From Cyanobacteriota bacterium (GTDB lineage Bacteria > Cyanobacteriota > Cyanobacteriia > Cyanobacteriales > Nostocaceae), in assembly GCA_046045965.1 (NCBI GenBank), contig JBJOKS010000012.1:32001-96000 (forward strand): a stretch of 64,000 nucleotides of DNA, read 5' to 3'. Both the position numbers and the translations under genes were made by a program. Positions 4,476 to 24,090 of the stretch are shown piece after piece. The notes beneath the pieces were generated by a model that was not told where the DNA came from, ran no database searches, and worked only from the letters and a program-made list of their open reading frames with translations. Position 1 is the stretch's first letter, and each line of letters begins with the position of its first letter.

Positions 4476-4541
4476 TTTTATTATCCTTCTGTGGGAGACA
4501 CTATGGGTAGTTTCCTGCCCCGTAGGGGTAAAACTAACAAG

Positions 4542-5642
4542 TTAAATAAATGAGTGATGCACACCAGAAGCTTGAACAAGAATTTCCTCAACCTTAGTAA
4601 AGAATGCTTGTTCTGAAAAATTATTGACGGCGTGATTACGAATAGTTTCGTAATTCCAAGATATTCCTCTAGCCTCTAATAATGCTGCTTGTAAAGAATC
4701 GGGTGTTTGCCTCTTAAAAAAAACTCCGGTTTTACCAGGTATCTGAGTATCTAATACCCCACCGGCTCCATAAGCAATTACTGGAGTTCCACTAGCATTT
4801 GCTTCTACTGGAACTAATCCATAATCTTCTAAGGCAGCAACAATAATAGACTTGGCTTTAGAAAATAGGTCTTTACGTTCACCATCACTAACATGACCTA
4901 AGAATTCGATATTACCTAATGCCTTGGATTTTAACCGTTCTAGTTCGGGTCCGTCACCTGATATTAATAAATGCCACCCTAACCAATTAAAAGCCTCGAC
5001 TATGATATCAAGACGTTTATAACTTATCATCCGCGCCGATGCCAAGTAGTATTCCTGTTTGGTATCGGAAAAAACAAACTTATTGGTATCAATTGGATAG
5101 TTGATCACAATTGCTTGTTTCCTATAAATTTTTTGAATGCGACGGGCAACAACGCTGGAATTGGCAATGTAGAGGTCTGGTTCCTGAGAATATTTCAGGT
5201 CTACATTTCTCATCATTTCAAATATTTTTTCAATTAAGGGGGCAAAATAGCGATAGTCTCCATACTCTCGTAAATAAGTTTCTGTATCCCATAGAAAACG
5301 AGTGACATTATGACAGAAACAAATGTGACGTGCTTGTGATTTTTTACGCACTGCTTTGGCAAAACTAGTGCTACTACTAATAATTAAATCATAGTCTTGT
5401 AAATCCAATGCTCGAAAGGCAGGAAAGTACAGAGGAGCCATCAAGCGAAAATACTTGGCAGCACCGGGAATATTTTGTAAACAAGTTGTTCTAACTATCC
5501 GTTCACCCAGGTCAATTGTTTTTTGCGGATCATATAAGGATGTGAAAATGTCGGCTTGGGGGTAGCGTTTACAAAGCAATTCAAACACTCGCTCTGCTCC
5601 ACCGCGCTGGGTTAAGTAATCATGGACAAGAGCAATTTTCAT
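4542..5642 (-). CDS. Glycosyltransferase family 4
   Basis: MKIALVHDYLTQRGGAERV N-terminus; EDYGLVPVEANASGTPVI EX7E motif. Confidence 0.93.
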   Translation of the reverse strand: MKIALVHDYLTQRGGAERVFELLCKRYPQADIFTSLYDPQKTIDLGERIVRTTCLQNIPGAAKYFRLMAPLYFPAFRALDLQDYDLIISSSTSFAKAVRKKSQARHICFCHNVTRFLWDTETYLREYGDYRYFAPLIEKIFEMMRNVDLKYSQEPDLYIANSSVVARRIQKIYRKQAIVINYPIDTNKFVFSDTKQEYYLASARMISYKRLDIIVEAFNWLGWHLLISGDGPELERLKSKALGNIEFLGHVSDGERKDLFSKAKSIIVAALEDYGLVPVEANASGTPVIAYGAGGVLDTQIPGKTGVFFKRQTPDSLQAALLEARGISWNYETIRNHAVNNFSEQAFFTKVEEILVQASGVHHSFI

Positions 5643-6112
5643 GGATGATGCCTTATATGGGAGTGTTAAATAAATTAGGGGCTGTTTCGTAAGGTGTACA
5701 GATGTTAATAATCTCTCTGTTTATAGCAGTATTATGTCTGTACTAAACCCGTCCTTAGATAGTTACAGGCTGCAACTTAAGTTTGGCAAATGTTCGATAG
5801 CTTTGGTCAGCGTAGCTATCGCACTCCAAATCTGATTAACTACAAAACCCGCAAGCTTGTACATTAAATGACATTGCTTAATTAGCCATTTATAGTCAGA
5901 GTAATGAGTATAACTAGGCGGATGTAGAGATACCATTGGCAATCGGCGTAAAATCTACTTTATAGATATCTTTATGTTTTGCCTTTGGCTTTTTTTTACC
6001 AGGTAGATACTTTTGAATAAAACTTTAATTTTTACCTGTAAACTCAAGGTGGTAACAGAATATCAGGTAAATTCTAATTTATTTGCTCGTCTTGAACAGA
6101 AATATGAAAATT

Positions 6113-6138
6113 TGCCAACCCCCTGAAAAAGGGGGCTG
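6113..6138 (-). terminator. Putative stem-loop downstream of the SAF oxidoreductase
   Basis: CCCCC-tgaaaaa-GGGGG inverted repeat about 30 bp past the stop codon. Confidence 0.4.
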
Positions 6139-6167
6139 AATTTCAGTTTTACTATTGAATTTTTACT

Positions 6168-7481
6168 TTATTTGACAACTGCCAAAGTTTTAGCAGGAGC
6201 AAAATAAGCTGTTTGTTCAGTGCGTAATCTGTCGCAAAGTCTACCTTCAGGTAATTCGACATCATCGTAGGTCAGGACTTGATCTTTATCAATATCACGT
6301 TTTAAGCGACATCCTTCTGCTATCCCCATTGGTAGCAAATTTTGTTGTTGGACAATTTCTGAATTTTCACATTGTCCATAGGTCATGTAATAACCGATGC
6401 CATCAAGAGTTTCTCCGGCTTTAAGATCAATTTTGGCAGTAGCGACAACATCAACAATTGGACCAGCTATAGGAGCAAGCACAGCATCATGAAATAGCAC
6501 TGCACGCGCTACAGAAAGGGGAACTTCAAAATGGCAGAGGTGATAAGGGGTGTAGAAACTATAAAGAGGTCCTTCACCAAGTTTATAAAGATTTAGATAA
6601 TGCCGTTGTTTGGGGTCTTCATGGGTGGCAAAAACAAACACTCCTGGACCCGGTTTTGTGCCAACTACATAATCAACAATGCCACCTAATTCTTTGAGTT
6701 GGTCAACATCATACATTTTGGTCATTTCATCAACATGACCTGTGTATTCATATCCCAACATTCCCCTTTTTGCTACTTTCATTCCTGTGCCATTGGCGAC
6801 TATTGCTTGTTCAAAAGAAATTTTTGTGCCATCAGCAAAACTTGTCACCATTGCGGGATTTTGACCCCAGCGTTGAGCAAAACCAGCTTGGGTGGTAGGG
6901 TTGCGGTAGGGGTCTTGTAAACCTTTAATATTGCCACACAATAAGGGAGTTAAACCGATGCTTTTCACAAAGCGGTACAGGTTCATTTCTACCCCTGGTT
7001 GGTCGCCATCACAAGCTGTTAAAATTACTCCAGCGCGGTCTGCGTGAACTTTGAGGATAGGTCCAATTGTGCCATCTAGTTCTGCATTCATCAAAATTAT
7101 ATGCTTTTGATGGGCGATCGCTCTCATCACCAAATGAGCAGCATATTCAATTGTACCTGTGACTTCAATAATTGCATCTATGCCATCAGCTTCACACAGC
7201 AACATGGCATCTTCGGTAATTGCATATTTACCTTGAATCAGTGCATCTTCTAAATCAACTACACTAGAAACAATATTGCAATCCTCAATTCCTGCTTCTG
7301 AATAAGCTCTTTTAGCTCCATCAATGTGACGGTTAGAAATAGCAACCAATTCCATTCCCGGCACAGAATTGATAATTTGATTAGCAATACCCCGACCCAT
7401 AAAACCAGCACCAATCATTGCTACTTTTACAGGTTTACCTAATGCAGCACGAGCTTGTAAAGCTTGATCAACAATAATCAT
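6168..7481 (-). CDS. NAD(P)-dependent oxidoreductase with C-terminal SAF domain (homoserine-dehydrogenase-like, StrU-like)
   Basis: Rossmann motif MIGAGFMGRG; GDQPG; C-terminal SAF-like VVATAKIDLKAGETLDGIG; start MIIVDQ lies 2 bp after the rfbC stop. Confidence 0.85.
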   Translation of the reverse strand: MIIVDQALQARAALGKPVKVAMIGAGFMGRGIANQIINSVPGMELVAISNRHIDGAKRAYSEAGIEDCNIVSSVVDLEDALIQGKYAITEDAMLLCEADGIDAIIEVTGTIEYAAHLVMRAIAHQKHIILMNAELDGTIGPILKVHADRAGVILTACDGDQPGVEMNLYRFVKSIGLTPLLCGNIKGLQDPYRNPTTQAGFAQRWGQNPAMVTSFADGTKISFEQAIVANGTGMKVAKRGMLGYEYTGHVDEMTKMYDVDQLKELGGIVDYVVGTKPGPGVFVFATHEDPKQRHYLNLYKLGEGPLYSFYTPYHLCHFEVPLSVARAVLFHDAVLAPIAGPIVDVVATAKIDLKAGETLDGIGYYMTYGQCENSEIVQQQNLLPMGIAEGCRLKRDIDKDQVLTYDDVELPEGRLCDRLRTEQTAYFAPAKTLAVVK

Positions 7482-7483
7482 GA

Positions 7484-8029
7484 TTAAACTCCTATTAAAA
7501 TAGATTCTAGTAAAGGCCAATTGCGGTCTTTATCAGACATTTCAGTTGCAGCTAAAGGCCAAGAAATTTCTAAAAGTGGATCATCATAACGCAAACCACG
7601 TTCATAACCAGGAGTGTAAAATTCACCCACTTGATAGACAACTTCTGCACCATCTGTTAAAGTTTGATAGCCATGAGCAAACATTTCTGGTACATATAAA
7701 GCGCGGCGATTTTCTGCCGTGAGTTCTACACCAATATGCGACAAATAAGTTGGAGATTCAGGACGCATATCCACAATTACGTCATAAATTGCTCCTTGAG
7801 TACAACGAATTAATTTTGTTTCTGCTGCTGGGAGAATTTGATAGTGCATTCCTCTCAACGTACCTTTTTTATGATTAAAAGATAAGTTACATTGAGCAAC
7901 TGTTGGCTTTAAACCATGTTCAGCAAATTCTTGAGCGCAAAATGTCCGAGCAAAGAAACCACGATGATCTGGTTTTTCTTCTAAGTCAATAATGAATGCA
8001 CCAGGGAGATTAGTTTGAGTAAAAATCAT
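7484..8029 (-). CDS. rfbC: dTDP-4-dehydrorhamnose 3,5-epimerase family (RmlC-like cupin)
   Basis: DHRGFFAR, GTLRGMHYQ, FAHGYQTL and DDP motifs. Confidence 0.92.
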   Translation of the reverse strand: MIFTQTNLPGAFIIDLEEKPDHRGFFARTFCAQEFAEHGLKPTVAQCNLSFNHKKGTLRGMHYQILPAAETKLIRCTQGAIYDVIVDMRPESPTYLSHIGVELTAENRRALYVPEMFAHGYQTLTDGAEVVYQVGEFYTPGYERGLRYDDPLLEISWPLAATEMSDKDRNWPLLESILIGV

Positions 8030-8115
8030 AGTTTTTCAGAAAAAAGGGAACAGGGAACAGGGAACAGGGAACAGGTAAAAGTTTGTGAAAATTATCCATT
8101 ACTTAATATAATTTA

Positions 8116-8964
8116 CTAGCATTTTCCTCTAGCTTCAGGGATAAATTTTTTATTGGGTTTGATAAAAGTATCATCATTGTATTGAGTACAAAGTTCTGGA
8201 CGCTTCGGTGATTTTGCTGTGTAGACAAAAAATATAGTTGAGCGTTCTTCGCTTCTCACAGTACCATGATGTAAAACATTTCTGGGATCTACAAAAATCA
8301 CAGTTCCTGCTTTTCCTGGACAGGATTTCCAAGCTTTTTTAGAAATAATATTCATCATTTGTAGGTCATTAATTCCTAAGAAATTAGACTTCCACAGTGC
8401 ATAATCAACCCGATAATAATTCCACCACTCTAACGGATTATTAGGCAGGGGTATATATTCAAAAGCGCCGTGTTTTTCTGTCACATCATGTAAATAGATG
8501 ATGACTTTCATCATACGTCGGTCTTCAGAATCTTTATGCCAAAGTAGTGTTTGTAATTGCTGATTATTTGGGAAGTCTTTCCGCACATGAACACCATGAA
8601 AAGCTATAGGTAATCCGATATAGTTTTCTATGATATTTTGCAGCCGTTTTTCAATTCCCCAAGTAAAGAATTCTGGTAAATCTGTAACTGTATAAATCTG
8701 CGGTAAGTTATATCCTGATTGCACATTTCTAGGACTTTCCATCATCGCTGCATAATTTTTAGCACTATCTAACATTTGTGCAGTTGATGGTAATTCTAAA
8801 TTCTCTAAGGAAGTGATGTAAACACCTTCTTTTTTCAGAGTTTGGGCAATTAATTGATCTTCATGAGATAATGCAGGTAAATTTTTTCTTTGTTTAGCCA
8901 GAGATGCTTGATAATCTAGCTCAGAAGTCAGTGTATTTATTTTTTCGTTAAGAGTTTCTAACAT
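8116..8964 (-). CDS. Putative 2-oxoglutarate/Fe(II) dioxygenase (PhyH-like)
   Basis: WHKD (HxD) ... IYLHDV ... GTVIFVD...LHHG...R facial triad pattern. Confidence 0.7.
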   Translation of the reverse strand: MLETLNEKINTLTSELDYQASLAKQRKNLPALSHEDQLIAQTLKKEGVYITSLENLELPSTAQMLDSAKNYAAMMESPRNVQSGYNLPQIYTVTDLPEFFTWGIEKRLQNIIENYIGLPIAFHGVHVRKDFPNNQQLQTLLWHKDSEDRRMMKVIIYLHDVTEKHGAFEYIPLPNNPLEWWNYYRVDYALWKSNFLGINDLQMMNIISKKAWKSCPGKAGTVIFVDPRNVLHHGTVRSEERSTIFFVYTAKSPKRPELCTQYNDDTFIKPNKKFIPEARGKC

Positions 8965-8983
8965 GAGACTTATACCTAATTGC

Positions 8984-9994
8984 TTATACTTTACTTCGGC
9001 GGGAAATTTGGTTTAATGGCTGATGAGATTCGGCAATTTTCATTTCAGGAGCGGCCATGACTTCAATAGCAGAAATAGCCGCTAGAGCTAAAAAAGGAAC
9101 GACGGTTTTAATAGCCGTAATTGGCCATCTTCTCAAAGCACCTAAGAAAACTCTCAAGTTAACTTCTTGAAAATTATGCACCATCATTTGTGCATAAAAT
9201 CGCTGAGAATACCCTGCATTTTCTTGCAACTTAAAAATCACCTCTGGGAAGTGTTTATATTGCATTAACAGGGCAGATTGTGGCTCTTTTTGCCAATAAC
9301 TCACACCAACAATACATTCTAAATAGGTATCTTTGCTCACAATTACTTTGCCATTAGCAGCACAATACCCGGCTAAATATGCTAAAGAAATCCAATTATT
9401 GATAGCATCTGGCCAAATTTGGAGCGCGCGTTTAACTAAATCAGTTCTATATACTGAAGCCGTCAAGAAAATGACTGCTCCCACACTTTTAGAGAAGCAA
9501 TATTCAAATATTTCTTTACCATCAACCTCACCATCTTCACTATCAGCATCAAACCAGCGATTACCAACTATTGTTGGTGGATGAACAGGTTCACCAGTAA
9601 TTTTATTTCTACCAGAAAAATTGATAAACGCTAATGACAAATTCTCAATAGTTTTAATTTTATCTATTACATAACTAACTGCTTGATCTTGAATTGGATC
9701 ATCATCACCAATCGTCCAAACATATTTGGTGGTTGCAGAATTTAGGCAATAAATGATATTTCTCATTACGCCCAAATTCTTAAAATTTCTATTGGATTTA
9801 AAAGTTATGTTATTGATAGTATTTTGCCATTTTTTGATAACTTCCTGAGTGTTGTCGCTAGAACAATTATCAGAAACTAATATCTCACAATCAGATTCAT
9901 AACCTTTGATAGCTTTAGACAACCACTCTAATTGTTGATCAAGCAAATCCGCACGATTATAGGTAGGAATAGCAATGGTCAGTAATTTATTCAT
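8984..9994 (-). CDS. Glycosyltransferase family 2
   Basis: LTIAIPTYNR, VSDNCSSD, IGDDD; start moved to the ATG of MNKLL. Confidence 0.92.
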   Translation of the reverse strand: MNKLLTIAIPTYNRADLLDQQLEWLSKAIKGYESDCEILVSDNCSSDNTQEVIKKWQNTINNITFKSNRNFKNLGVMRNIIYCLNSATTKYVWTIGDDDPIQDQAVSYVIDKIKTIENLSLAFINFSGRNKITGEPVHPPTIVGNRWFDADSEDGEVDGKEIFEYCFSKSVGAVIFLTASVYRTDLVKRALQIWPDAINNWISLAYLAGYCAANGKVIVSKDTYLECIVGVSYWQKEPQSALLMQYKHFPEVIFKLQENAGYSQRFYAQMMVHNFQEVNLRVFLGALRRWPITAIKTVVPFLALAAISAIEVMAAPEMKIAESHQPLNQISRRSKV

Positions 9995-10108
9995 AGGTTG
10001 ACATGATCCAAACAAATCAAATTATTTTTCCCACAATGAATTAAATCAAGAATTACGGATTAAAAGCAGTAAAAAATAGTTGTTACTGCTTTCATCCGTT
10101 ATCAATCC

Positions 10109-11143
10109 TTATTTAGTCCAAAAGAAATCTTTGTCAATTTGTTGAGTACGAATCAGGTACTCAAGCTGTTTTAATCTTGTAAATCCTCTAAACAAGAAAG
10201 TATCTTCAGTCATGTCGATTTGACGGAACAAATCAAATAACTGTTGAGCGCCGCGTTGAGCATTCCAATCACACTTAAAGCCTGGTAAAATTGTATTTAT
10301 TTTCTCAAAAGAAACTCGATAACTACGGTTATCTGAACCATTATTACCAAAGGTTAATTTACAACCAGGGAAAGTATCAGCAATAATTTCGGCAATTTCT
10401 TTAACGCGATAATTATTCTGTGTATCTCCCACATTAAAAACTTGATTGTGGACAATATCTCTGGGTGCTTCTAAGGTACAAACAATGGCTTTGCAAATAT
10501 CCAAAGCATGAACTAATGGCCGCCAAGGTGTACCATCACTGGTCATTTTAATTTCTTTGGTAGTCCAAGCTAAACCAGCTAAATTGTTTAAAACAATATC
10601 AAATCTCATTCTGGGAGAAGCACCAAAAGCGGTAGCATTCCGCATGAAGGTAGGAGAGAAATCATCATCCGCTAATGGTTTAATATCTCTTTCTACTAAT
10701 GTTTTACATTCAGCGTAAGCTGTTTGCGGATTTACAGGTGATTCTTCGGTGACATCACCTTCACTCGCAACTCCATAAACACTACAAGAAGACATATAAA
10801 TAAAGCGACGCACCCCCATTGTTTTCGCTAAATTAGCTAAACGTACAGAACCTAAATGATTAATATCATAGGTAATGTTGGGTGCTAATTGTCCAGTAGG
10901 ATCGTTAGAAAGTTCTGCTTTATGAACTATTGCATCTATACCTTCTAAATCTTCCGGTGTAATATCGCGAATATCTTTGTTGAGGGTTTTAGCTGTGATG
11001 TCAGTCCCGTTATATAACCAACCAACTTTATAAAAACCTGTATCTAGTCCGATAACTTCGTGACCTTTAGCAATTAATAAAGGAGGTAATAAAGAACCTA
11101 AATATCCTTCTGTTCCTGTGACTAATATTTTCATTGTTTTCAA
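10109..11143 (-). CDS. NAD-dependent sugar epimerase/dehydratase (extended SDR)
   Basis: ILVTGTEGYLG, SSCSVYG, YAECK (YxxxK). Confidence 0.93.
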   Translation of the reverse strand: MKTMKILVTGTEGYLGSLLPPLLIAKGHEVIGLDTGFYKVGWLYNGTDITAKTLNKDIRDITPEDLEGIDAIVHKAELSNDPTGQLAPNITYDINHLGSVRLANLAKTMGVRRFIYMSSCSVYGVASEGDVTEESPVNPQTAYAECKTLVERDIKPLADDDFSPTFMRNATAFGASPRMRFDIVLNNLAGLAWTTKEIKMTSDGTPWRPLVHALDICKAIVCTLEAPRDIVHNQVFNVGDTQNNYRVKEIAEIIADTFPGCKLTFGNNGSDNRSYRVSFEKINTILPGFKCDWNAQRGAQQLFDLFRQIDMTEDTFLFRGFTRLKQLEYLIRTQQIDKDFFWTK

Positions 11144-11186
11144 TTCCTTGTTATTGATGTTTTAATCTTTTTGCAACCACCTTTTT

Positions 11187-12131
11187 TTAGATTCTGGCGG
11201 TGGTTAATGATGTTAATTTCATGAATTTTCGCCCTAATCTTCTCCAGAAAGTGTCCCGCCATCCTGACCAAGATGTCATGTCAAGATATTGAAAAAATAA
11301 ATCTTTTTTCGGGTGTTTACACTCTGCTTGTAATCCTGCGTGCCAGGGTTTAGGAGAGCTAATAAAGTGAATAATGTAAGGCTTATGCAGCAGTTCCTCA
11401 TAAACATCTTCTGGGTAAGGACTCTCTTTCCAGGACGAATAATCATATATTCTGGGGAGTTGATTCCATCTCGGATGAATTTCTCGCCATTTACCTGCCA
11501 GAATTGCATTTAGACCATCTTGATCGTTGTATTTTACATATTCTTTATTCTGTTTTATATATTCAATTACTTTTTCTCCTATGTTGTCGCTGCGCCATTT
11601 TTTCAAGTTAATTACTAACATTCCAGCATTAAAATATTTAGAATCTGGATCAATTCCCAATTCTTGATAATTCTTTAATCCATCACAGGTTGATATGTAC
11701 ATCTGGACATCATCCTGAACCGCTAATACATAGTTATCTTCTATAGGAATATTCCATAATTCTTCCAAATTTCCCTGTACTACCATGTCGGTATCTAGAT
11801 AAATTGCTTTTTCACAATCTATGGGTAAAAGTTTAGGAATCAGGAGTCTATAATATGTAGCTGTTGTTAGATGTCCGACCAATACCAAATTATTTAACCG
11901 CGTATCATCTATCGGTAGCCAGGAAATATTAACTTGTGCTGATTTCACAGATTTAGTAATTCTATTTTTGTTATATTTACTAATACCTCCATCAAGAATG
12001 AATAACTCTATCTTGTGATTACTTTTGAAATTTGCAAGTGCTGAACGAATCATGACTGCTAGGGGCATGGCATAGTTATTATCAGCAGCACAGACAAGTG
12101 TAATCGGCTGAAGATTGAAGTTAATGGACAT
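11187..12131 (-). CDS. Glycosyltransferase family 8 (GspA/RfaJ-like)
   Basis: TYYRLLI, IYLDTD, YFNAGMLVINL, DQDGLN, IIHF..PKPW motifs. Confidence 0.92.
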   Translation of the reverse strand: MSINFNLQPITLVCAADNNYAMPLAVMIRSALANFKSNHKIELFILDGGISKYNKNRITKSVKSAQVNISWLPIDDTRLNNLVLVGHLTTATYYRLLIPKLLPIDCEKAIYLDTDMVVQGNLEELWNIPIEDNYVLAVQDDVQMYISTCDGLKNYQELGIDPDSKYFNAGMLVINLKKWRSDNIGEKVIEYIKQNKEYVKYNDQDGLNAILAGKWREIHPRWNQLPRIYDYSSWKESPYPEDVYEELLHKPYIIHFISSPKPWHAGLQAECKHPKKDLFFQYLDMTSWSGWRDTFWRRLGRKFMKLTSLTTARI

Positions 12132-12278
12132 AATGAAAATCCTATAACTAACGTTGTTGAAGATGAAAATATGCTTGACAGCGACTGCAATAATAAGTGA
12201 TTAGGTATAATTTTCTTATTCACTTATTCTGGAGTAAATGAAGAGTATACCTGGTGAATATAGGCTAGATGCAAAAGG

Positions 12279-12439
12279 GAGAGCATCCCAAGAACAGCAA
12301 AAATCACGAGACTGAACGGAAAAAACTTTTAAGCTTTCTTCCCTTTGCGCTCTATGGGTTTTTGGCGTTAAGTTTTTTTATTTCCTGGATCAGTGATCAG
12401 CTCAGATAAAAAGTAAACTTACACATTTGGGATGCTCTC
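12279..12439. mobile_element. MITE-like element, 161 bp
   Basis: Perfect 13-bp terminal inverted repeats GAGAGCATCCCAA / TTGGGATGCTCTC; no ORF; no clean TSD. Confidence 0.65.
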
Positions 12440-12462
12440 GATGGCAAGTAATTAATCAAAAG

Positions 12463-13680
12463 TTAATTTTTTACTGCCATTTCTAGGAGGGGAGACTGTT
12501 GGGCAATTTTCTCTACAATTGCTTTGCCAATTTCTAGAGAAGAAGTTGCTGCGGGAGATGGTGCGTTGCAAACATGAATTGAGTTGTCACTTTGGATAAT
12601 TAAAAAATCATCTACTAGAGAACCATTATTCATTAATGCTTGAGCGCGAACTCCTGCATGGGTGGGTACTAAATCTTCGGCTTTAACTTCGGGAATTAGT
12701 TTTTGTAAACTGCTAACAAAGGCCGCTTTACTAAAGGAACGAATTATTTCTTGAATTCCTTCATCAGCGTGTTTTGCTGCTAGTTTCCAGAAACCAGGAT
12801 AGGTGATTACTTCTGCAAAGTCTTTTAAGTCAAAGTCGGTTTTTTTGTACCCTTCACGTTTGAGACTCAAGACTGCATTTGGTCCTGCATGAACGCTGTT
12901 ATCAATCATGCGGGTGAAATGGACACCTAGAAAGGGAAAATCAGGGTTAGGAACTGGATAAATGAGAGTTTTCACCAAATAGCGTTTTTCGGGGGTGAGT
13001 TCGTAATATTCGCCCCGAAAGGGGACAATTTTAGCTTCGGGGTTGGCTTTACCTAATTTTGCAATGCGATCGCTATGCAATCCGGCACAATTAATTACAA
13101 ATCTCGTTTCAAAACTACCCTGGTTAGTTTCTAATACTTGATTTTTCCCACTTTGGAATATTTGTAAAACTTTGGTATTGAGACGTAAATCTCCGCCTTG
13201 GTTTTTAATCAGTTCAGCGTATTTTAAACAAACTTGTTTGTAATTAACAATTCCTGTAGAAAATACCCGAATTCCACCAACACAACTCACATGAGGTTCA
13301 ATTTCTTTGACTTCTTCAGCACTAATTTTCTGCACTGCTATTCCATTATCTAAACCTCGTTGGTAGAGGTTTTCTAGCCGTGGTAGTTCTTGTGCATTTG
13401 TCGCCACAATTACTTTACCACAAATGTCATGTTCAATATCATGTTTCTGGCAGAATTCTACCATTGAGCTACTACCATCACGGCAAAATTGAGCTTTAAA
13501 GCTACCTGGTTTGTAGTAAATTCCTGAATGAATTACGCCGCTATTATTACCTGTTTGGTGAAATGCCCATTGACTTTCTTTTTCTAATACTAAAATCCGT
13601 GCATCAGGATAGCGTGATCCTAACGCCATTCCTGTAGAAAGTCCCACGATTCCCCCACCAATAATGGCAAAATCATACAT
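12463..13680 (-). CDS. lhgO: L-2-hydroxyglutarate oxidase family FAD oxidoreductase
   Basis: IIGGGIVG, QTGNNSGVIHSGIYY, FPFLGVHFT, NAPSPAATSSLEIG. Confidence 0.92.
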   Translation of the reverse strand: MYDFAIIGGGIVGLSTGMALGSRYPDARILVLEKESQWAFHQTGNNSGVIHSGIYYKPGSFKAQFCRDGSSSMVEFCQKHDIEHDICGKVIVATNAQELPRLENLYQRGLDNGIAVQKISAEEVKEIEPHVSCVGGIRVFSTGIVNYKQVCLKYAELIKNQGGDLRLNTKVLQIFQSGKNQVLETNQGSFETRFVINCAGLHSDRIAKLGKANPEAKIVPFRGEYYELTPEKRYLVKTLIYPVPNPDFPFLGVHFTRMIDNSVHAGPNAVLSLKREGYKKTDFDLKDFAEVITYPGFWKLAAKHADEGIQEIIRSFSKAAFVSSLQKLIPEVKAEDLVPTHAGVRAQALMNNGSLVDDFLIIQSDNSIHVCNAPSPAATSSLEIGKAIVEKIAQQSPLLEMAVKN

Positions 13681-13845
13681 TAGTAATTTTTCCCCAATCT
13701 AAAATTTAAACTTGCTATATCAGCTTTCAGCTATTAGTTGTCAGCTTGTTAGTACACTAAGAATCGCTATTTTAACATCTACTGATTGCTCAAATATTCT
13801 CACTTCTGACTCCTGAATCCTGACTCCTGACTTCTTACATTGCTA

Positions 13846-14619
13846 TTACCAAACCTTCCAAGGAGCTTGATCAGCTTTCCATAGATCCTCTAAGTAATTT
13901 TTATCTCTTAAAGTATCCATTGGTTGCCAAAAACCATTATGTTTGAAAGCTGATAACTCTTGCATATCAGCTAACTTTTCTAATGGTTCTTTCTCCCAAA
14001 CAGTAGTGTCATCAGTAATAAAGTTGATCACTTCAGGTTCTAAGACAAAATAACCGCCATTTATCCAAGCCCCATCACCTTCAGGTTTTTCTCGAAAACT
14101 AGCAATTTTCGTTTGTTCTTGTCCTAGAGAAATTGCACCAAACCTTCCTGCTGGTTGCACTGCGCTGAGTGTCGCTAATGTTTTTTGTTCTTGATGAAAT
14201 TTAATTAATTCCGTGATATTTACATCACTTACACCATCACCATAGGTAAAGCAAAATGTGTCATTACCAATATGTTCTCTAACTCTCTTTAAACGTCCAC
14301 CAGTCATGGTATTATCACCTGTGTTGACTAAGGTAACACGCCAAGGTTCCGCATATCCAGAATGTATACTCATTTGATTAAATCGCATATCAAAAGTCAC
14401 ATCTGACATATGTAAGAAGTAATTGGCAAAATACTCTTTGATGATGTAACCTTTATACCCACAACAGATGATAAATTCATTAATACCATGAGCCGAGTAT
14501 ATCTTCATGATATGCCAGAGAATGGGCTTACCTCCAATCTCAACCATCGGCTTCGGTCTGATACTAGTTTCTTCACTGAGGCGTGTACCAAGACCCCCAG
14601 CCAAAATTACTGCTTTCAT
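13846..14619 (-). CDS. rfbF: Glucose-1-phosphate cytidylyltransferase
   Basis: ILAGGLGTRLSEET..PKPMVEIG, TGGRLKR, TYGDGV, FWQPMDTLRDK. Confidence 0.95.
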   Translation of the reverse strand: MKAVILAGGLGTRLSEETSIRPKPMVEIGGKPILWHIMKIYSAHGINEFIICCGYKGYIIKEYFANYFLHMSDVTFDMRFNQMSIHSGYAEPWRVTLVNTGDNTMTGGRLKRVREHIGNDTFCFTYGDGVSDVNITELIKFHQEQKTLATLSAVQPAGRFGAISLGQEQTKIASFREKPEGDGAWINGGYFVLEPEVINFITDDTTVWEKEPLEKLADMQELSAFKHNGFWQPMDTLRDKNYLEDLWKADQAPWKVW

Positions 14620-15136: not shown

Positions 15137-15171
<35 letters not shown>

Positions 15172-15251: not shown

Positions 15252-17447
15252 TTAACGGTTGAGAGGGTCAAACATAGTTGAGCTTTGGAATAAAGCATCA
15301 CATCTTTTGGATACAATTACACAAATGCTGCTGAGTGCTTGCTGGTAGTTATCCATGTCTTTTTGTTCCAGGTAAATTTGAGCCGATTTTTCTAAATCTT
15401 CAATGGCTTTTGCTTGGTTTTCTTGAGATTTAGTTTCCCCATATTGGGCTAACTCATAATGAACCATTCCCCGTTTGAGGTAAACCTGAGCCATGCGGGG
15501 ATTGATATTTAATGCTTCGTTAAAATCTGCAATTGCCTGTTTATATATTTGAGTGTAATTACTACTATATTGGGCAAATTGATAACGAGCAAGACCACGC
15601 TGAAAGTAAGCTTCTGCTTTGGAAGTATTAAGTTGAATTGCTTCGGTAAAATCCGCAATTGATTTTTGGTATTCTTGTTGAAAATTCTGGCTATATTTAG
15701 CTATTTGCGAACGAACAATACCTCGTCTGATATAAGCTTCGGTGTCACGCTCATTAATGTTGATAGCAGTATTAAAGTTTTGGATAGCTTTCTTATACTC
15801 TTGGTCAGGATCATTACTATAGTCGGCCAGCATAAAATAGGCATTGCCCCGATTCACAAAAGCTTTGACTTCCTGCGGATTAATTTTCAGAGCTTGGTTA
15901 TAGTCTGCCAATGCTCCTTCATAATCGTTCAAGTTGTAGCGAGCATTGCCACGATTGATATACAGTTTAGAAAAATTAGGATTTTTTTTGATACCTTGGG
16001 TAAAATTTTCAATTGCTTGCTCATAGTCTTGCTTTTGATAAGCAGCATTACCACGGTCATAGTAATCTACAAAAGTGAGACTTTCATCTTGATGAATATT
16101 CTTGTTTTGATTAGGCATCAAGCTTTGTTGAGTGTAAGGATTTTGAGAAACAAAGGGACGAGTAAATTTGATCATTATGTCCAAATACCCCAATAATCCC
16201 AAACCCAACAGGCTAAACATAATAGTATAAAATCTTGATTTGTTGGACTTTTTGGCAGCTTGATAAGCAGAAAAGTTTGGGTTAAATACTGGTTGCCAAT
16301 GATGTAGATGAGATGCGGGAATAGCTGGTCTGCGTACACGAGGAGTATGTGTTGGGCGCTTTCTAGATTTTCGGCGGGGTTTGAGATGTTCCTTAGCAGC
16401 GATCGCCTTCAGTGATGGAAAAGGATCACGTCCACCTAACTGGGCGGTACGTTCACACCAAGGACACTTGTCAAGATGATTATGGTAGAGATGCTGGGGG
16501 TTAACAGCACAAGTAACAAGACTTTCTTCAGCTGTAATTAGGGCTGACAACCAAGTTTGAGCCGTAGGACGTAAATGCGGGTTGTGATGCCCATCCTCAA
16601 AACAACGCACAAACAAATCCCGTAAACCAGGATGGAGCTTTTCCCAAGCCGGTGCTATGGGGGTAGGCAAATAGGGAACTTGTTGCTTTTGACTGTAAGT
16701 AAAATGACCTGCAACTATTCTGGCTTCGTAAGTGGGTGGATCAAACAGACCTTGAAAAATCCCAGAAAATGGGTGAGTTCCTTCCATTAATAATTGAAAG
16801 ATCAGCACCGCTAACCCAAATAAATCATGAGAAATTTCACGATCATATTCAGCAAAAGTTTTATTCTGTAGTTCTGGGGGAGTATACTCTGGTTTACCGA
16901 CTGAACAACGATAGACAATATTTTGCTCTCTTTCACGAACTTGGAATGAGTCTGTGTCTACCAAAGTAACTAAGGCGGCATCACTAACTAAAATATTGGA
17001 CTCATTGACATCACCAATGCAGTATTGACTTGTGTGTAAAGCTGCAAAAGCTGCTGCCAAATTACGGGCTGCCCTGAGTAAATACTGATAATTAAATAAA
17101 GGACAATTTTGACGACGGTTTCCCGGATTATAAAAGTCCATGATCGGCCGCATCCCTCGAATACGCGGCATTAAAAAGCCGATGATACTACCACTGCCAT
17201 CGGCAGCTTGTAACAACTCTTGTGGCCACGCAATGGAAATATGCCCCAAATTAGCTGTTGGGTTTTCTGGGGGGTTGGCAATCATCGCTTGAAGTTTGTG
17301 GGCATGAGTCAGAATTGGCTTATGATAGATTTTGGCCACTAAATTTTCATCTGATGGCACTGCATAGACACAAGCTTCACCGCCACGCCCCAAATTGACT
17401 GTGAGATTGAGAATTTCCGGCTGGGGAAGAGAACGTAGTACCTGCAT
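15252..17447 (-). CDS. YegI/TerY-P-type Ser/Thr kinase with Zn ribbon, TM helix and C-terminal TPR array
   Basis: GRGGEACVY, VAKIY, GDVNESNILV, DTDSF, PPEL; CAVNPQH...CPWC; hydrophobic TIMFSLLGLGLLGYL; several TPRs (YINRGNARYNLNDYEGALADYNQALKINP). Confidence 0.9.
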   Translation of the reverse strand: MQVLRSLPQPEILNLTVNLGRGGEACVYAVPSDENLVAKIYHKPILTHAHKLQAMIANPPENPTANLGHISIAWPQELLQAADGSGSIIGFLMPRIRGMRPIMDFYNPGNRRQNCPLFNYQYLLRAARNLAAAFAALHTSQYCIGDVNESNILVSDAALVTLVDTDSFQVREREQNIVYRCSVGKPEYTPPELQNKTFAEYDREISHDLFGLAVLIFQLLMEGTHPFSGIFQGLFDPPTYEARIVAGHFTYSQKQQVPYLPTPIAPAWEKLHPGLRDLFVRCFEDGHHNPHLRPTAQTWLSALITAEESLVTCAVNPQHLYHNHLDKCPWCERTAQLGGRDPFPSLKAIAAKEHLKPRRKSRKRPTHTPRVRRPAIPASHLHHWQPVFNPNFSAYQAAKKSNKSRFYTIMFSLLGLGLLGYLDIMIKFTRPFVSQNPYTQQSLMPNQNKNIHQDESLTFVDYYDRGNAAYQKQDYEQAIENFTQGIKKNPNFSKLYINRGNARYNLNDYEGALADYNQALKINPQEVKAFVNRGNAYFMLADYSNDPDQEYKKAIQNFNTAININERDTEAYIRRGIVRSQIAKYSQNFQQEYQKSIADFTEAIQLNTSKAEAYFQRGLARYQFAQYSSNYTQIYKQAIADFNEALNINPRMAQVYLKRGMVHYELAQYGETKSQENQAKAIEDLEKSAQIYLEQKDMDNYQQALSSICVIVSKRCDALFQSSTMFDPLNR

Positions 17448-17601
17448 AGTGGAATTACGGTTAACAGTGGTTATGGAAAGGGACTGGGGATTGAGTTACA
17501 AACGACCCATTGGATCGTCTCTACGGAATGGAAGATTGGAAAAAGGCTGATCCTGAACCTTACAGCTTGCACCCTAAACCCTACCCAATAAACATTGTTC
17601 A

Positions 17602-18381
17602 TCAATTGTTTAATGCTGCTAATACCAAAGTCAAATCATCATCAGTGCGTTTTGTAATTCTTTCAGAACATAAAAACTTTACTAATTGCTCTTTAGCTAT
17701 CATTTTATCTTCAGCATTGGCTACAAAGTCAAATAAAGGAAAAAAGAATGGTTTATGAGGTTCACCAACCAGCATATTTAAAGCCAGCATTTGTAGTCCA
17801 TCGGTGAGAACACCAATATTAACTATGTTATGACGCAATATTTTGATTTGGGTTGTAGCTAAAGCATCAGGTGAAGTCAAAAATGTGGTTTCATTAATGT
17901 ATTCACCGCTGTTGGGGATAGTTAGCGCCTGTAAGTTACCTGTGCTATCCTTGGCCACAGCTAAACCATCTCCGATTTGAGCTACTGCTGCAATTTTTGG
18001 TGTGGCGATCGCAATAATTAAGGTGGTTGCTAAATCAGATGGCTGATGTTTGGAAACCTCTGCTTCATTTTCTACTGCTTTTTGAGCGGCTAACATCGTC
18101 TGGGTTAGCAGATCACGCAAAAGATGATCATCAGCCAGGATGCTGTGAGTATCTTCGCAGTTCGAGATATGTTCTATTGCTGTTTCTACCGCTATCATCG
18201 CTCCCACTTTTCCCAAAGTTGCTGAACCAGCCCCATCTGCGGCTGCTATCACTAACAGATTATTTGGCAATATCTGCCAATGGTGAGCATCCTGGCACAA
18301 CTGCTGGTTTTTGATGTGGCTAGTCCCACATACAGAAGCGGCTACTATCCGCCATTGAGGAATTTGTTTTGGTGTGTTCAT
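17602..18381 (-). CDS. PP2C-family (PP2C_2/YegK) Ser/Thr phosphatase
   Basis: ASVCGTSH..CQD, AADGAGSA, QIGDG, LTDGL, DDDLT; likely start is the ATG at 18381 because the longer ORF reads through STRRs. Confidence 0.9.
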   Translation of the reverse strand: MNTPKQIPQWRIVAASVCGTSHIKNQQLCQDAHHWQILPNNLLVIAAADGAGSATLGKVGAMIAVETAIEHISNCEDTHSILADDHLLRDLLTQTMLAAQKAVENEAEVSKHQPSDLATTLIIAIATPKIAAVAQIGDGLAVAKDSTGNLQALTIPNSGEYINETTFLTSPDALATTQIKILRHNIVNIGVLTDGLQMLALNMLVGEPHKPFFFPLFDFVANAEDKMIAKEQLVKFLCSERITKRTDDDLTLVLAALNN

Positions 18382-18569
18382 AAATTTGTTCTCACAGCTA
18401 TAGCAGGTGACAGGTGACAGGGAACAGGTGATCGGTGACAGAGTTGAACGTCTGTTTGTATTTTCAGTTTTGTCCATACCTACTGTACGTTGACACGTTG
18501 GCGTTAACCGTGCGTTAGCACTACAGTTGATGTCCTCACCACCTTGTTTGTTGCTATAACTGCTAACTT

Positions 18570-19244
18570 TTAAACAGACCCCCAACCAATTGGTGGTAGT
18601 GCTACTTGCTCATCTACCTGGGAATGGGAGACGGCTGACATACTCGCAGAAAGCCAAACAAACATTTCAATAAAGTTTAATCCTTGAAGTTTGAGGGGAG
18701 TACGCACCGCTATTTGATTTAAACGGTTCATGTTGGCATTTTCTACTCCTACCGTAAAAAAAGCTACACGTTTATTTGCTTCGTCTCCTTGCAGACGCTG
18801 TATTGCTTGTTCTATAACATCATCTAGCTCACCTTGCGGCTCACCATCTGTAATCATAAATACCCAAGGACGGTAGTACGCAATGCCATTAGCACGATAT
18901 TGGGATTTGCGTTCTTGAATTATTTCTAACGATTTATGAATTCCTGCCCCCATTGTCGTTAGTCCTTGGGCTGTTAGAATAGGTGGGTTGAATTGGTCTG
19001 CGGTGACAAAATCTTGCACAACATTGACATGACTATCAAAAGTAACAATTGCTACTTCCACCCTTCTGGCTGCCAAGGAATTTTTTACCAGTTCATCCTT
19101 AAAAGTCAATAAGCCCTGATTTAAAGCCTCAATCCGTTCTCCTTGCATGGAGCCAGATGTGTCTAGCAATAGCACGCACGGGCAACGAGGTTCAGGGTTT
19201 TCTGCAAATTCTACGATTTCATCTAGTTTTAGTGTATCCAGCAT
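18570..19244 (-). CDS. TerY/YegL-family vWA domain protein
   Basis: RCPCVLLLDTSGSM (MIDAS DxSxS), GLTTMG, YYRPWVFMITDGEP. Confidence 0.92.
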   Translation of the reverse strand: MLDTLKLDEIVEFAENPEPRCPCVLLLDTSGSMQGERIEALNQGLLTFKDELVKNSLAARRVEVAIVTFDSHVNVVQDFVTADQFNPPILTAQGLTTMGAGIHKSLEIIQERKSQYRANGIAYYRPWVFMITDGEPQGELDDVIEQAIQRLQGDEANKRVAFFTVGVENANMNRLNQIAVRTPLKLQGLNFIEMFVWLSASMSAVSHSQVDEQVALPPIGWGSV

Positions 19245-19860
19245 AACCTTTTGTGTTATGTTATAGTCCAACGTTTTAATTTCCTTTTCTCAAAGTATAT
19301 AGTTTGCCAGACTAATGCGACTACAAGTATGGTATTTGGCAGTAGATGGATGAAAATTCATCTATCAACCTATTCTCATTAAATAGTCTATTTCAGGAAA
19401 CTTGATCATCACCATATAGTTTAGTTAAAGCCAATTGTTCGGGGGGTGAACATTATTTATTTGGGCGCAGTTACCATCATTTATCTGCAAATAAATAAGA
19501 ATATAATATTCAATATATCCATTGACAATAAATAAGAATTTAAAGATTTTATGTGGAAAATTTGCTAATTATCAACCACTCAGTAAACATAATTAATGCA
19601 GCAATTTGATAATGGACACACTGTAAAAATGAAACCTGATAATTTGTATCACCTTGGCAATACGAACACAGTTGACGGTCTAGTAGTATTATGTAACCAA
19701 AAGAGGGGTAATTGATATAGCTTGAGATAGATATATTAATTTCCTAATCCATAATTAGTTGGTTTATAGATAACTATGAGAAGAAAGACATATTGAATCC
19801 TAACCTGAAATTTATTCTGTCTCCATCCTAAGTCAATTTTTCGGAAAAAACTGTAAAAAT

Positions 19861-21225
19861 ATGAATAATACTGGCACATTTACCAAACTATCTCCTGAAA
19901 GTTTATTAAGACAGTTAACCAATTCTTCTGACACTACTTGTTTACAAGTCCTGAACAATTCAGTGTTATGGTCTATATACTTAGATCAGGGAAAAATCCT
20001 CTATGCCACCCATTCAGTAGAACCCTTTGATAGACTGGAACGGCATCTGCGTCGTCTGGGCCAGCAAATTCCCTTACTAACTAATGAGATTCGTGTACAA
20101 TTACGCATGACGTTTGAAGCTGAGGGTCCAACTCAGTTCAGCGAACCTCGTGATGATAATCCCAGCCAACCGCCGGAATATCAAGCTATTCACTGGCTTG
20201 TTACTGAAAAACATCTACTCTCTCACCATGCAGCATTATTGATTCAAGAGTTAGTCAAAGAAGTGATTGAATCTTTTTTGCTGATTCGAGAAGGAACTTA
20301 TGAATTAACAGCACCAGTTAATAGCTTACCTAAAATTTGCAGGCTGGATGTGGAAAATATCATGGAACGCTGCCACAAGCGGTTACAAAATTGGCAGTCT
20401 TTCGCTCCCCAAATCTCTTCTCCCTATCAGCGTCCATACCTGTTGATTAACAGTAGATTCTATGATAAGCAACTACCAGAACTACAGCAAAATATCACTA
20501 CCTGGATGAAGGGTTTTAGCCTACGTCATTTGGCGGTAATTATGAATCTGGATGAGGTGGAACTGGCTCGAACTTTATACCCACATATCCTTCAGGGTTC
20601 GATTATTTTACATGAACCAGACCCCCCATTTGATAAATTACCTAAAACCTTTGAAGATGTTTTACTAGCTCCTCGATACAGCACAATCAGAATTAATGGC
20701 AAATCGTTTAAGGTAGAAGCATCACCATCCACTACCCTGGGAGAGAACCCTATACCTCAAGTTTCTGCTTTACCAAAAGAAAACCTTGAGCAATCAACCA
20801 TACCAAATAACATACAAGCTGATGGGGAAAACGTAAACGCTGCTACCATAACGGCTAAAAAACCCTACAAAATTATTTCTGTCGATGATAGTCCGACAGT
20901 TCTCAAAGAAATAAGTCGTTGTTTGGAAGATGAAAATGTTGCTGTAGTGACTATTAATGATCCAATCAAAGCGGTGATGTCCATTATTAGGCACAAACCC
21001 GATTTAATTTTGTTGGATCTGAGTATGGCGGGAATTGATGGTTATGAGTTATGCCGAATTATTCGCAATAATTCCATGTTTAAGGAAATTCCCATTATTT
21101 TCGTTACTGGTAGTAAGGGAATTGTTGATAAGGTAAAAGCAAGAATGGTAGGAGCTTCTGGTTATTTAACTAAACCTTTTACTCGTGCTGAATTGTTAAA
21201 GATGATTTTTATGCACTTGGCATAA
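19861..21225 (+). CDS. PatA-family response regulator (PATAN/DUF4388 + receiver)
   Basis: N-terminal WSIYLDQGKILYATHS and SPYQRPY PATAN-like segments; C-terminal REC (VDDS, LLDLSM, FVTG, LTKPF). Confidence 0.88.
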   Translation: MNNTGTFTKLSPESLLRQLTNSSDTTCLQVLNNSVLWSIYLDQGKILYATHSVEPFDRLERHLRRLGQQIPLLTNEIRVQLRMTFEAEGPTQFSEPRDDNPSQPPEYQAIHWLVTEKHLLSHHAALLIQELVKEVIESFLLIREGTYELTAPVNSLPKICRLDVENIMERCHKRLQNWQSFAPQISSPYQRPYLLINSRFYDKQLPELQQNITTWMKGFSLRHLAVIMNLDEVELARTLYPHILQGSIILHEPDPPFDKLPKTFEDVLLAPRYSTIRINGKSFKVEASPSTTLGENPIPQVSALPKENLEQSTIPNNIQADGENVNAATITAKKPYKIISVDDSPTVLKEISRCLEDENVAVVTINDPIKAVMSIIRHKPDLILLDLSMAGIDGYELCRIIRNNSMFKEIPIIFVTGSKGIVDKVKARMVGASGYLTKPFTRAELLKMIFMHLA

Positions 21226-22848: not shown

Positions 22849-23235
22849 CTATGCCAACTTCTTCTCCCTATGGCTATTACGTACTTCTGTTTTTTGCTTA
22901 CTCCCAACTTCCAGATAAGCTATATCCTTAATTTTTTTGCTCAAGCTGCTAGGTGCTAAATGAGTATCAGACCTTTTCTCAGTTGGTGATGTGGCAATTT
23001 TCAGAGTTTCATTCGGTTGAGAGTTTGACCGACTGTTGCGGGAGTTTTCTTTGAGTAGTCGGTTATAAGTACGGTAAGGAATGTAATGCAGAGGATTGTA
23101 ACCCACAAACCGCAGCATTAACACACAAGCCCAGGAATACTTACCAGCGAGAATAGCTTCTACTACTTGGTCGAACTGCTCAGGATTGATTTTTTTATCA
23201 GGGAGTCCACTATTGCCAGAAATATCTTGATTCAT
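22849..23235 (-). CDS. hetP: Heterocyst commitment protein HetP
   Basis: EQFDQVVEAILAGKYSWACVLMLRFVGYNPLHYIPYRTYNRLLKEN is the HetP family core. Confidence 0.92.
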   Translation of the reverse strand: MNQDISGNSGLPDKKINPEQFDQVVEAILAGKYSWACVLMLRFVGYNPLHYIPYRTYNRLLKENSRNSRSNSQPNETLKIATSPTEKRSDTHLAPSSLSKKIKDIAYLEVGSKQKTEVRNSHREKKLA

Positions 23236-23526: not shown

Positions 23527-24090
23527 TCAGCACTTCCCGTAACTAAGAGTAAAAAAGCTATTGCTAAAACTGCTCTGTTGTGTTCGTTGCATCCAGATAC
23601 TATGGAGCCAAGTTTTAGTTTTCGCAATTTTTACCGCTAACTGGGTCGTTTTCCGTATGTTGGGGAGAAACTTCCATAAACTAACTTTCAAAACTAAGGT
23701 GCTTGGGGTTGCTTGTTCTGCTTTAGCTTTCATCTTCCCCAGGGTCCTAGTCATCCAAGTTGTGATTTGTTTTTCTGGGATGTGACTGACTTGTGCAGTG
23801 TTTCCTGTACACTCCCACATCACAACTCTGGGCAAAATATCTAACTTCTTCTCCCAAACTACATACAGAAGGGCTGAAAGTGCCTTATTCTCGCAGGATG
23901 TTGACTTGTTGCTGTTATTTTTAATTACTATGTCGCTACTTTTTGGTAGGACTGATAAATTTACTTTTGGTGAAAGTACGGAACTTTCTGCAATGGATGC
24001 CTGACGAGAATGTAATTCAGAGTGTTGTCTCTCTAAATTATTTCGTTGGCTTGGTGTTTCGACTGCAATTGACCTGATGATTTGTTTCAT
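23527..24090 (-). CDS. Hypothetical protein, 187 aa, basic and Ser-rich
   Basis: ATG-initiated long ORF co-oriented upstream of hetP; no recognisable domain. Confidence 0.5.
   Translation of the reverse strand: MKQIIRSIAVETPSQRNNLERQHSELHSRQASIAESSVLSPKVNLSVLPKSSDIVIKNNSNKSTSCENKALSALLYVVWEKKLDILPRVVMWECTGNTAQVSHIPEKQITTWMTRTLGKMKAKAEQATPSTLVLKVSLWKFLPNIRKTTQLAVKIAKTKTWLHSIWMQRTQQSSFSNSFFTLSYGKC

Follow-up and report, generated by a model that had tools for sequence, protein, structure and literature searches.

A 64-kb stretch of the genome of a member of the Nostocaceae (Cyanobacteriota bacterium, assembly GCA_046045965.1, contig JBJOKS010000012.1, positions 32,001 to 96,000 of the forward strand) carries, at the head of its heterocyst envelope polysaccharide (HEP) island, three adjacent genes for a von Willebrand factor A (vWA) protein, a PP2C-like phosphatase and a YegI-type kinase, which by their sequences form a TerY-P-type triad. 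The whole stretch is referred to here as the window, and all coordinates are given within it. According to the open reading frame (ORF) calls, the three genes are encoded on the minus strand in one orientation, and the locus is organised as follows.

18570 to 19271, minus strand: TerY-type vWA protein, orthologue of YegL and Alr2822, with a metal ion-dependent adhesion site (MIDAS) of the form D-x-S-x-S..T..D.
17602 to 18381, minus strand: PP2C-like Ser/Thr phosphatase of 259 aa, orthologue of PphC (YegK) and Alr2823.
15252 to 17447, minus strand: YegI-type atypical Ser/Thr kinase of 731 aa, orthologue of Alr2824, in the order kinase, Zn ribbon, basic linker, transmembrane (TM) segment, TPR array.
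16518 to 17405, minus strand: kinase domain, residues 15-310.
16455 to 16511, minus strand: zinc-ribbon motif C313..H319..C328xxC331, predicted to bind metal and common to YegI.
16182 to 16232, minus strand: single hydrophobic segment, residues 406-422, a predicted membrane anchor from hydropathy and charge counts (marginal score), followed by a conserved D-x-M-I-K-F-T-R-P.
15300 to 16070, minus strand: six TPR units (Pfam TPR), with inserts of 8-10 residues in the last four, and a capping helix with C709 and C716.
19535 to 19560, minus strand: upstream block with a -10-like TAAAAT, kept across family loci, the probable promoter of the triad.
838 to 14619, minus strand: HEP island, with rfbF, an lhgO-like oxidoreductase, GT8, an epimerase, GT2, a protein of no known type, rfbC, a DRL oxidoreductase, GT4, wzc and hepC; further genes lie to the left of the window.
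19861 to 21225, plus strand: PatA-family (PATAN+REC) regulator, All2821 orthologue by position and length, a neighbour that is probably not part of the switch.

This arrangement agrees largely with the original prediction, made from the letters of the window. ORF calls, Pfam matches and motifs confirm three co-oriented genes for a vWA protein, a PP2C and a YegI-like kinase with a Zn ribbon, and the divergent gene indeed carries the PATAN(DUF4388) and REC domains (Pfam) of a PatA-family regulator. Downstream of the triad, rfbF, sugar enzymes and glycosyltransferases, wzc and hepC follow in the same orientation, the products of rfbF and hepC matching TIGR02623 and NF045514, respectively, over cut-off. 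The triad had been placed directly upstream of rfbF, which holds for orientation and gene order, but a gap of 632 bp separates kinase and rfbF. The vWA gene probably starts at TTG 19271 and not at ATG 19244, because an AAGGA box precedes the former and the resulting 233-aa frame recurs in 17 of 20 family loci. For the PP2C gene, ATG 18381 (259 aa) is the most likely start, a longer TTG-started frame passing through an intergenic repeat. The triad's intergenic gaps (window 15137-15170 and 18399-18430) contain short heptamer repeats in tandem as well as small dispersed ones; they lengthen the apparent PP2C frame and draw many unrelated contigs in environmental RNA matching. In the environmental RNA runs X1-X3, taken as contigs only, coverage extends to 30, 28 and 16 of 30 bins, with a DNA origin possible.

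The three triad proteins score over the Pfam cut-offs for VWA, for PP2C_2 (E 6e-61), and for Pkinase and TPR, respectively, although the Pkinase score of the 731-aa kinase is only 32.2 bits against a cut-off of 31.7, and NCBI and UniRef label it a TPR protein. Identity to the E. coli K-12 proteins is 55% for YegL, 39% for PphC and 36% for YegI, the last over residues 11-331 with the CPWC motif included. The vWA protein has DTSGS at residue 37, and its MIDAS residues D28, S30, S32, T96 and D133 (224-aa numbering) are conserved in 46 aligned proteins. In the kinase, the motifs GRGGE (20), K39, GDVNESN (145), DTDS (164) and C313..H319..C328PWC331 are present, and among 46 kinases C313 of the Zn ribbon is invariant, with H319, C328 and C331 each kept in at least 90%. 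Residues K39, D146, D164-T-D and S167 align with K39, D141, the DSD motif and S162 of YegI, which are reported to be required for activity (bioRxiv 10.1101/819920). YegI is dephosphorylated by PphC, whose D46 is required (10.1101/303594), and the Asp aligned to D46 is retained in the triad PP2C. A TerY-P triad has been defined as a vWA protein with MIDAS, a PP2C and a Ser/Thr kinase with a C-terminal Zn ribbon (PMC11090510), and the three adjacent co-oriented genes encode a TerY-like vWA protein with MIDAS, a PP2C and a kinase with such a ribbon. Judged by sequence, they are a TerY-P-type triad, and the equation with YegL-YegK-YegI made at the outset is borne out by the identities and the retained catalytic residues.

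The likeness to E. coli YegL/PphC(YegK)/YegI includes the same three genes in the same order and, for YegI, the K39, the catalytic Asp, the D-[ST]-D-S motif, the C..H..CPWC ribbon and membrane anchoring. In contrast, YegI is described as having two TM helices, both ends in the cytoplasm and another C-terminal part, while the triad kinase has one marginal TM segment and six TPRs. Among solved structures, none is closer to the kinase than generic eukaryotic kinases (best E 2e-9), and its TPR part retrieved only generic TPR clusters in an Atlas search.

For this tail, a TM helix and a long TPR array had been predicted. Six TPR units, starting at residues 460, 494, 528, 570, 612 and 654 by manual reading, and a hydrophobic segment are indeed found, although the latter is marginal as a TM helix. 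Residues 406-422 are preceded by 15 K/R and one D/E and followed by three K/R, and a conserved Asp comes after them. A second hydrophobic segment occurs in none of 120 homologues, and K/R are more numerous on the N-terminal side in 95 of 121 (20-residue flanks). Exactly two Cys are present in the C-terminal part of 119 of 121 proteins, and both C709 and C716 are invariant in 38 aligned sequences; the pair also occurs in another cyanobacterial family (f5) and in Aliterella and Chlorogloea. Being exactly two and invariant, the Cys suggest an extracytoplasmic disulfide. The placement of the TPRs across the membrane, as originally proposed, is thus favoured by the K/R bias, the single segment and the Cys pair, though with only moderate support, and a periplasmic TPR array appears likely.

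The same genes can be recognised in Anabaena PCC 7120, where alr2822-24 are listed between the response regulator all2821 and the glucose-1-phosphate cytidylyltransferase alr2825 (PMC3141674). Their lengths fit the triad, as the listed gene length minus 100 gives 675, 783 and 2199 nt (an inferred 100-nt offset that fits alr2825 too). A peptide window of Alr2822 matches the triad vWA protein with K158 in register (PMC8557916), and Ava_1103-1105 of A. variabilis are labelled vWA, hypothetical and TPR at the same positions (PMC4046671). Because position, lengths, the Alr2822 peptide and the A. variabilis labels agree, the triad genes are, by sequence and synteny, orthologues of alr2822-24, and syntenic genes do precede the HEP island in this strain, as stated in the original prediction. 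In the accessible parts of these sources, alr2822-24 and Ava_1103-1105 receive no description beyond co-regulated 'hypothetical' or 'hep island' proteins. A full-text literature search found no paper calling alr2822-24 a kinase, a phosphatase or a TerY-P triad, and no mutant of these genes, although subscription papers may say more. The triad type and the co-regulation of the genes were already known, while we found no publication that identifies them as a TerY-P kinase switch ending in a TM-TPR tail.

Published expression data are available for the orthologues in PCC 7120 and A. variabilis, not for the source organism. In PCC 7120, reads at 0, 6, 12 and 21 h after nitrogen step-down are reported as 2, 4, 543 and 216 for alr2822, 3, 5, 697 and 238 for alr2823, 1, 1, 477 and 193 for alr2824, 1, 1, 610 and 281 for alr2825, and 7, 7, 15 and 20 for all2821 (PMC3141674). 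The 12-h rise in these RNA-seq data is 262-, 225- and 461-fold for alr2822, alr2823 and alr2824 and 589-fold for alr2825 (rfbF), so that the induction on nitrogen step-down expected by the original prediction is observed in this strain. The triad orthologues drop by 21 h, like alr2825; hepA is likewise reported to peak at 12 h, and the hgl and nif genes at 21 h. E. coli pphC differs from its triad orthologue, strongly induced in development, in that transcription was seen under no condition in the accessible part of the report (10.1101/303594). Additionally, expression of alr2822-24 is lowered, as is that of the island, in mutants of sigC and sigE (PMC4390870), and two further papers group them with it (PMC7065334, PMC7797909). 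At the protein level, Alr2822 (3 peptides) and Alr2823 (1 peptide) are up 1.6-fold and 1.3-fold at N12 (PMC8557916). In A. variabilis, phototrophic vegetative/heterocyst signals are 7152/710 for Ava_1103, 3820/240 for Ava_1104 and 1660/151 for Ava_1105, and the vegetative/heterocyst signals of Ava_1106 and the regulator Ava_1102 are 577/31 and 83/260 (PMC4046671). Ava_1103-1105 thus track Ava_1106 across the cell fractions, and the authors attribute the low heterocyst signal of hep genes to mature heterocysts.

The block at 19535-19560 is probably the triad's own promoter. It is found at three or fewer mismatches in 22 of 25 loci versus 7% of shuffles (the pattern coming from the same alignment), and a sigma70-like site spans 19575-19546 (the total count of such sites being near chance). 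The DIF1/sigma-HetZ promoter motif has been given as TCCGGA-N16-17-TGNA (PMC13342950); no such site is conserved upstream of the vWA gene in the 25 loci and none is present in the window, and NtcA and DIF1 sites are not conserved upstream of the vWA gene or rfbF. Four supplement files of PMC13342950, which may lack some of the datasets, contain no rows for alr2822-25. A motif shared with HEP promoters was also considered and rejected, as the matrix of the block has no second site in the island and its next-best genome match precedes an unrelated permease. A predicted FurC box at alr2822 scored negative for binding (PMC10406281).

The triad is almost universal among heterocyst formers. Family f1 was taken as heterocyst-forming Nostocaceae on the basis of its named homologues and of nifK, which 326 of its 331 genomes carry; exactly one kinase-domain match at E 1e-150 or better occurs in 327 of these 331, covering 67 of 67 genera. 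In the four misses, the kinase gene has a frame break near its start, while the order with vWA, PP2C and rfbF is intact. Among 20 family loci compared, one per genus, the triad order is intact in all and the PatA gene is divergent in 19; rfbF follows the kinase in 16 (once with a small ORF between), is absent there in three, and one locus ends at a contig edge. Where both positions are known, hepC lies co-oriented 12-20 kb downstream of the kinase in 40 of 47 genomes, is rearranged but within 50 kb in three and on another contig in four. As family members are kin and not independent, this linkage is one ancient arrangement that has been kept. In one genome (G127; L071/L034), triad and HEP island are still neighbours, but the island is turned round so that its distal end faces the kinase. 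In nine pairwise comparisons, the ratio of nonsynonymous to synonymous substitution rates (dN/dS) is 0.02-0.08 for the vWA gene, 0.08-0.18 for PP2C, 0.07-0.12 for the kinase domain and 0.11-0.24 for the TPR part, with a triad dS resembling that of rfbF and its neighbours; the triad is under purifying selection. The distribution is thus near-universal and HEP-linked; the patchy pattern unlinked to HEP genes that would have refuted the original prediction did not occur.

Defence systems are generally patchy, mobile or located in defence islands, and the conservation of the triad therefore bears on the alternative, raised from the beginning, that it is an anti-phage TerY-P system protecting differentiating cells, for example by a kinase-triggered shutdown or by an altered phage-bound coat. 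This appears quite improbable for genes that are fixed, single-copy and chromosomal in a developmental cluster, have envelope genes as neighbours and are under purifying selection even in the TPR array. YegI-type kinases do occur on 48 plasmid records, but none of these reaches 60% identity, and one phage record matches the kinase at 31%. TerY-P-like modules with an OB-fold kinase have been reported as stand-alone anti-phage systems, in which the OB-fold replaces the Zn ribbon (PMC11090510, citing Gao 2020); the triad kinase, in contrast, has the ribbon, a TM segment and TPRs and no OB-fold family match in Pfam, and its surroundings show no tellurite, restriction or CoCoNuT context. PADLOC 2.0 gives weak generic kinase matches and none for the vWA protein or PP2C, a weak point since no TerY-P-named model is in its output. 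In favour of a defence role, a paralogous and patchy clade exists in cyanobacteria.

This second TerY-P clade (L044-L063) has interchangeable tails, including WD40, TPR, FGE-sulfatase, PQQ propeller, pilin-like and DUF1036 forms. WD40 forms like these are found on Trichormus plasmids, and L063 has a 1204-aa vWA fusion. The clade is a better defence candidate than the HEP-linked triad, although the surroundings of the patchy paralogues show no clear defence islands (15 of 98 neighbour proteins match PADLOC at 1e-15, of which 8 are partial mad2).

From an evolutionary perspective, the triad clade is older than its position at the HEP island. Kinase matches occur in 110 of 401 genomes across the phylum, with 46 of 46 in f1 at 72-94% identity and a tier at 53-67% formed by f3 (26/26), f4 (6/6), f5 (2/2), f7 (2/2) and f29. 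HepC is present in 4/26, 0/6, 2/2 and 0/2 genomes of f3, f4, f5 and f7, respectively. Kinase and hepC are on different contigs in all six non-f1 genomes with both that were checked, and none of 20 non-f1 loci (one of only 2.8 kb) has rfbF or hep genes beside the kinase. In a tree of 68 kinase domains built by FastTree, with YegI as the root and with local supports (L054, which has no complete kinase, and L063 left out), f1 (0.90) joins f5 with the named Aliterella and Chlorogloea (1.0), then f7 (0.99), and then f3 and f4, and the patchy copies at 33-42% identity form a separate clade (1.0). We take this branching order to resemble that of the species tree. Among 32 kinases scanned, tails are TPR in f1 and f5, WD40 in f7 and f4, and many hydrophobic segments in f3, with GUN4 as a further type in the clade. 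The named loci of Gloeocapsopsis, Aliterella and Chlorogloea, presumably unicellular genera without heterocysts, show the order PatA gene, divergent PP2C, kinase. Since the TM-TPR form and the PatA adjacency are present in these unicellular relatives away from HEP genes, both would, on this comparison, predate the HEP linkage, and the clade is best described as an old, vertically inherited cyanobacterial TerY-P branch, older than heterocysts. The idea of a defence system domesticated for heterocysts is not supported by this result: the clade already exists in families mostly without HepC, the tail in unicellular relatives is unlinked to HEP, and triad and island outlive the loss of nif genes, as detailed below.

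The age of the clade leads to another explanation, namely that the triad is an ancestral general envelope or stress sensor with its old function, its closeness to HEP genes being historical synteny and its co-expression incidental. Compatible with this are the occurrence in all genomes of f3, f4, f5 and f7, most of them without HepC, the variable tails, and the vWA orthologue kept elsewhere in the genome in five of five split-triad genomes searched, as well as the PatA neighbour, which shows that non-functional synteny can persist at the locus. However, the triad shows almost no expression in PCC 7120 prior to step-down (1-3 reads), and its genes are the first of the run, receive no read-through from hep promoters and have a conserved upstream block suggestive of their own promoter, all of which make this explanation unlikely.

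The PatA gene itself heads, in L075, a complete cluster of PatA, CheY, CheW, methyl-accepting chemotaxis protein (Cache, HAMP, GAF) and CheA that adjoins the PP2C and kinase genes, and f1 loci retain it alone or sometimes with CheY. As it is not co-expressed with the triad in the published data (all2821 in PCC 7120; Ava_1102 in A. variabilis), expression and origin in a Che cluster speak against it as a fourth component of the switch, and it looks like a remnant of old synteny, not a partner. L077 instead has a CheA-like gene on the downstream side of its kinase.

Several relatives show further variants. The f3 kinases of L008-L015 and L085 belong to the same clade and end in about 5-8 hydrophobic segments without Pfam match; f3 kinases are often not adjacent to their vWA and PP2C genes, and L008 and L009 have insertions of RNase III-domain or Uma2 genes. 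An f5 genome has a wzc-hepC-hepA-glycosyltransferase cluster like the distal HEP island (L069), on a contig other than that of the kinase. Finally, at G000:C17:30345-35604 (L136), a second, distant vWA gene (31%) is followed by a 610-aa PP2C-like gene and preceded by two vWA-like ORFs, and no YegI-type kinase was found at that locus.

Genomes that have lost nitrogen fixation indicate what the triad is kept with. A nifK match is missing in five of the 331 f1 genomes, and three of these (G420, G495, G527) lack nifH over cut-off as well; in all three, the triad frames are unbroken and the genes from rfbF to wzc and hepC come next. G527 (7.3 Mb, 4 contigs) and G420 (4.5 Mb, 240 contigs), in which neither nif gene was found but triad and HEP genes are intact, possibly represent independent losses. 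Raphidiopsis brookii D9, a named record and not an additional nif-less case, has the kinase in an open frame; this strain is reported to lack heterocysts and the nif and glycolipid clusters, to keep envelope polysaccharide genes and to form akinetes (PMC2821919). The triad thus tracks the polysaccharide island, not nitrogen fixation. Its retention with the island in nif-less genomes fits a role in the Hep or akinete envelope, function and linkage not being separated by it. Heterocyst loss was also considered as a discriminating test and fails as such, since neither triad nor island is missing from the nif-less genomes.

Taken together, the preferred interpretation, to which we assign a probability of about one half, is that the triad is a developmentally timed membrane phospho-switch for envelope polysaccharide of the Hep or akinete type. 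An old TerY-P branch would have come to lie in front of the HEP island in the heterocyst-forming family and to follow the developmental timetable of the island, so that a membrane-anchored Ser/Thr phospho-switch operates during deposition of the Hep-type polysaccharide layer of heterocysts and probably also of akinetes. By analogy with E. coli, the kinase would autophosphorylate at S167, the counterpart of YegI S162, and the PP2C would reset it. Kinase and Zn ribbon would face the cytoplasm, and the TPR array, with a C709-C716 disulfide, the periplasm, where its context suggests that it may bind protein or nascent glycan; the vWA protein may be a metal-dependent partner or a substrate. The output may tune enzymes of Hep synthesis and export, with Wzc and the glycosyltransferases as candidates. 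A precedent exists in the kinase Alr3423 and the phosphatase HenR, which control the glycosyltransferase All4160 and, together with HepS, HepK and HepN, place Hep formation under reversible Ser/Thr phosphorylation, although HenR/Alr3423 is a partner-switching (STAS, SpoIIE-like) module (PMC13555669). In the accessible part of the same source, Alr2824 is not among the Hep regulators or kinase candidates listed, and control of Hep-layer formation is termed poorly understood as of 2026. The kinase would probably restrain and the phosphatase release, in which case a screen for Fox-minus mutants might miss the triad.

Other findings weigh against this interpretation. The frame of the kinase gene is broken in five genomes, the fifth after the kinase domain, although neighbours are broken too in two of four frame-broken loci inspected and assembly error is possible. 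In other families the clade is not linked to HEP genes, which points to another present or past function. The TM segment is weak, with a summed insertion score of +0.3 (17-mer) or +2.1 (19-mer) and a homologue mean of +3.4, and both YegI helices score better (-0.3 and +1.1). The A. variabilis triad signal is in the 'vegetative' fraction, which leaves the expressing cell type unsettled, and Alr2824 is absent from the proteomic quantification table as far as accessible (PMC8557916). Moreover, the published island comprises alr2825-alr2841 and leaves the triad out (PMC4390870, PMC13555669), and rfbF is not behind the kinase in three of 19 evaluable family loci (L033, L034, L040), where the triad is nevertheless intact. 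These last two points also speak for a differentiation-stage module that shares the island regulon and acts on a target different from Hep, for instance the remodelling of wall or membrane, the arrest of division or polarity in differentiating cells. Co-induction and linkage fit such a module equally well, and hetP is close by in the window and in some relatives; the expression profile, however, matches that of the hep genes (12-h peak) and not that of hgl and nif (21 h), and the triad is kept with the island in nif-less genomes, which makes another target a less likely alternative.

The hetP gene of the window lies at 22849-23235. A 187-aa ORF upstream of it (23527-24090, minus strand) has no Pfam, NCBIfam or Atlas match and is kept before hetP in L025 (53%) and L027 (74%). 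No hetC-sized gene is present in this region, and the PCC 7120 locus numbers place alr2817 (hetC) before alr2818 (hetP).

A bolder form of the phospho-switch for envelope polysaccharide, and a tentative one, is that the TerY-P triad, a module hitherto associated with stress and anti-phage defence, is a receptor-kinase checkpoint of differentiation, in which periplasmic TPRs would read assembly of the heterocyst or akinete coat and the kinase-phosphatase pair would act by direct phosphorylation on the synthesis or export machinery encoded downstream. An atypical kinase has stood unrecognised at the front of the HEP island in the model strain, and direct tests are easy now that its catalytic residues are named. 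If mutants turn out normal, the gain would be a corrected annotation of three genes that belong to the core set of heterocyst-forming cyanobacteria. If the switch is real, it would be, as far as our searches reach, the first case in which a YegI-type kinase has a physiological input and output, and the TerY-P family would gain a member whose trigger, nitrogen step-down, is known and whose host is open to genetics.

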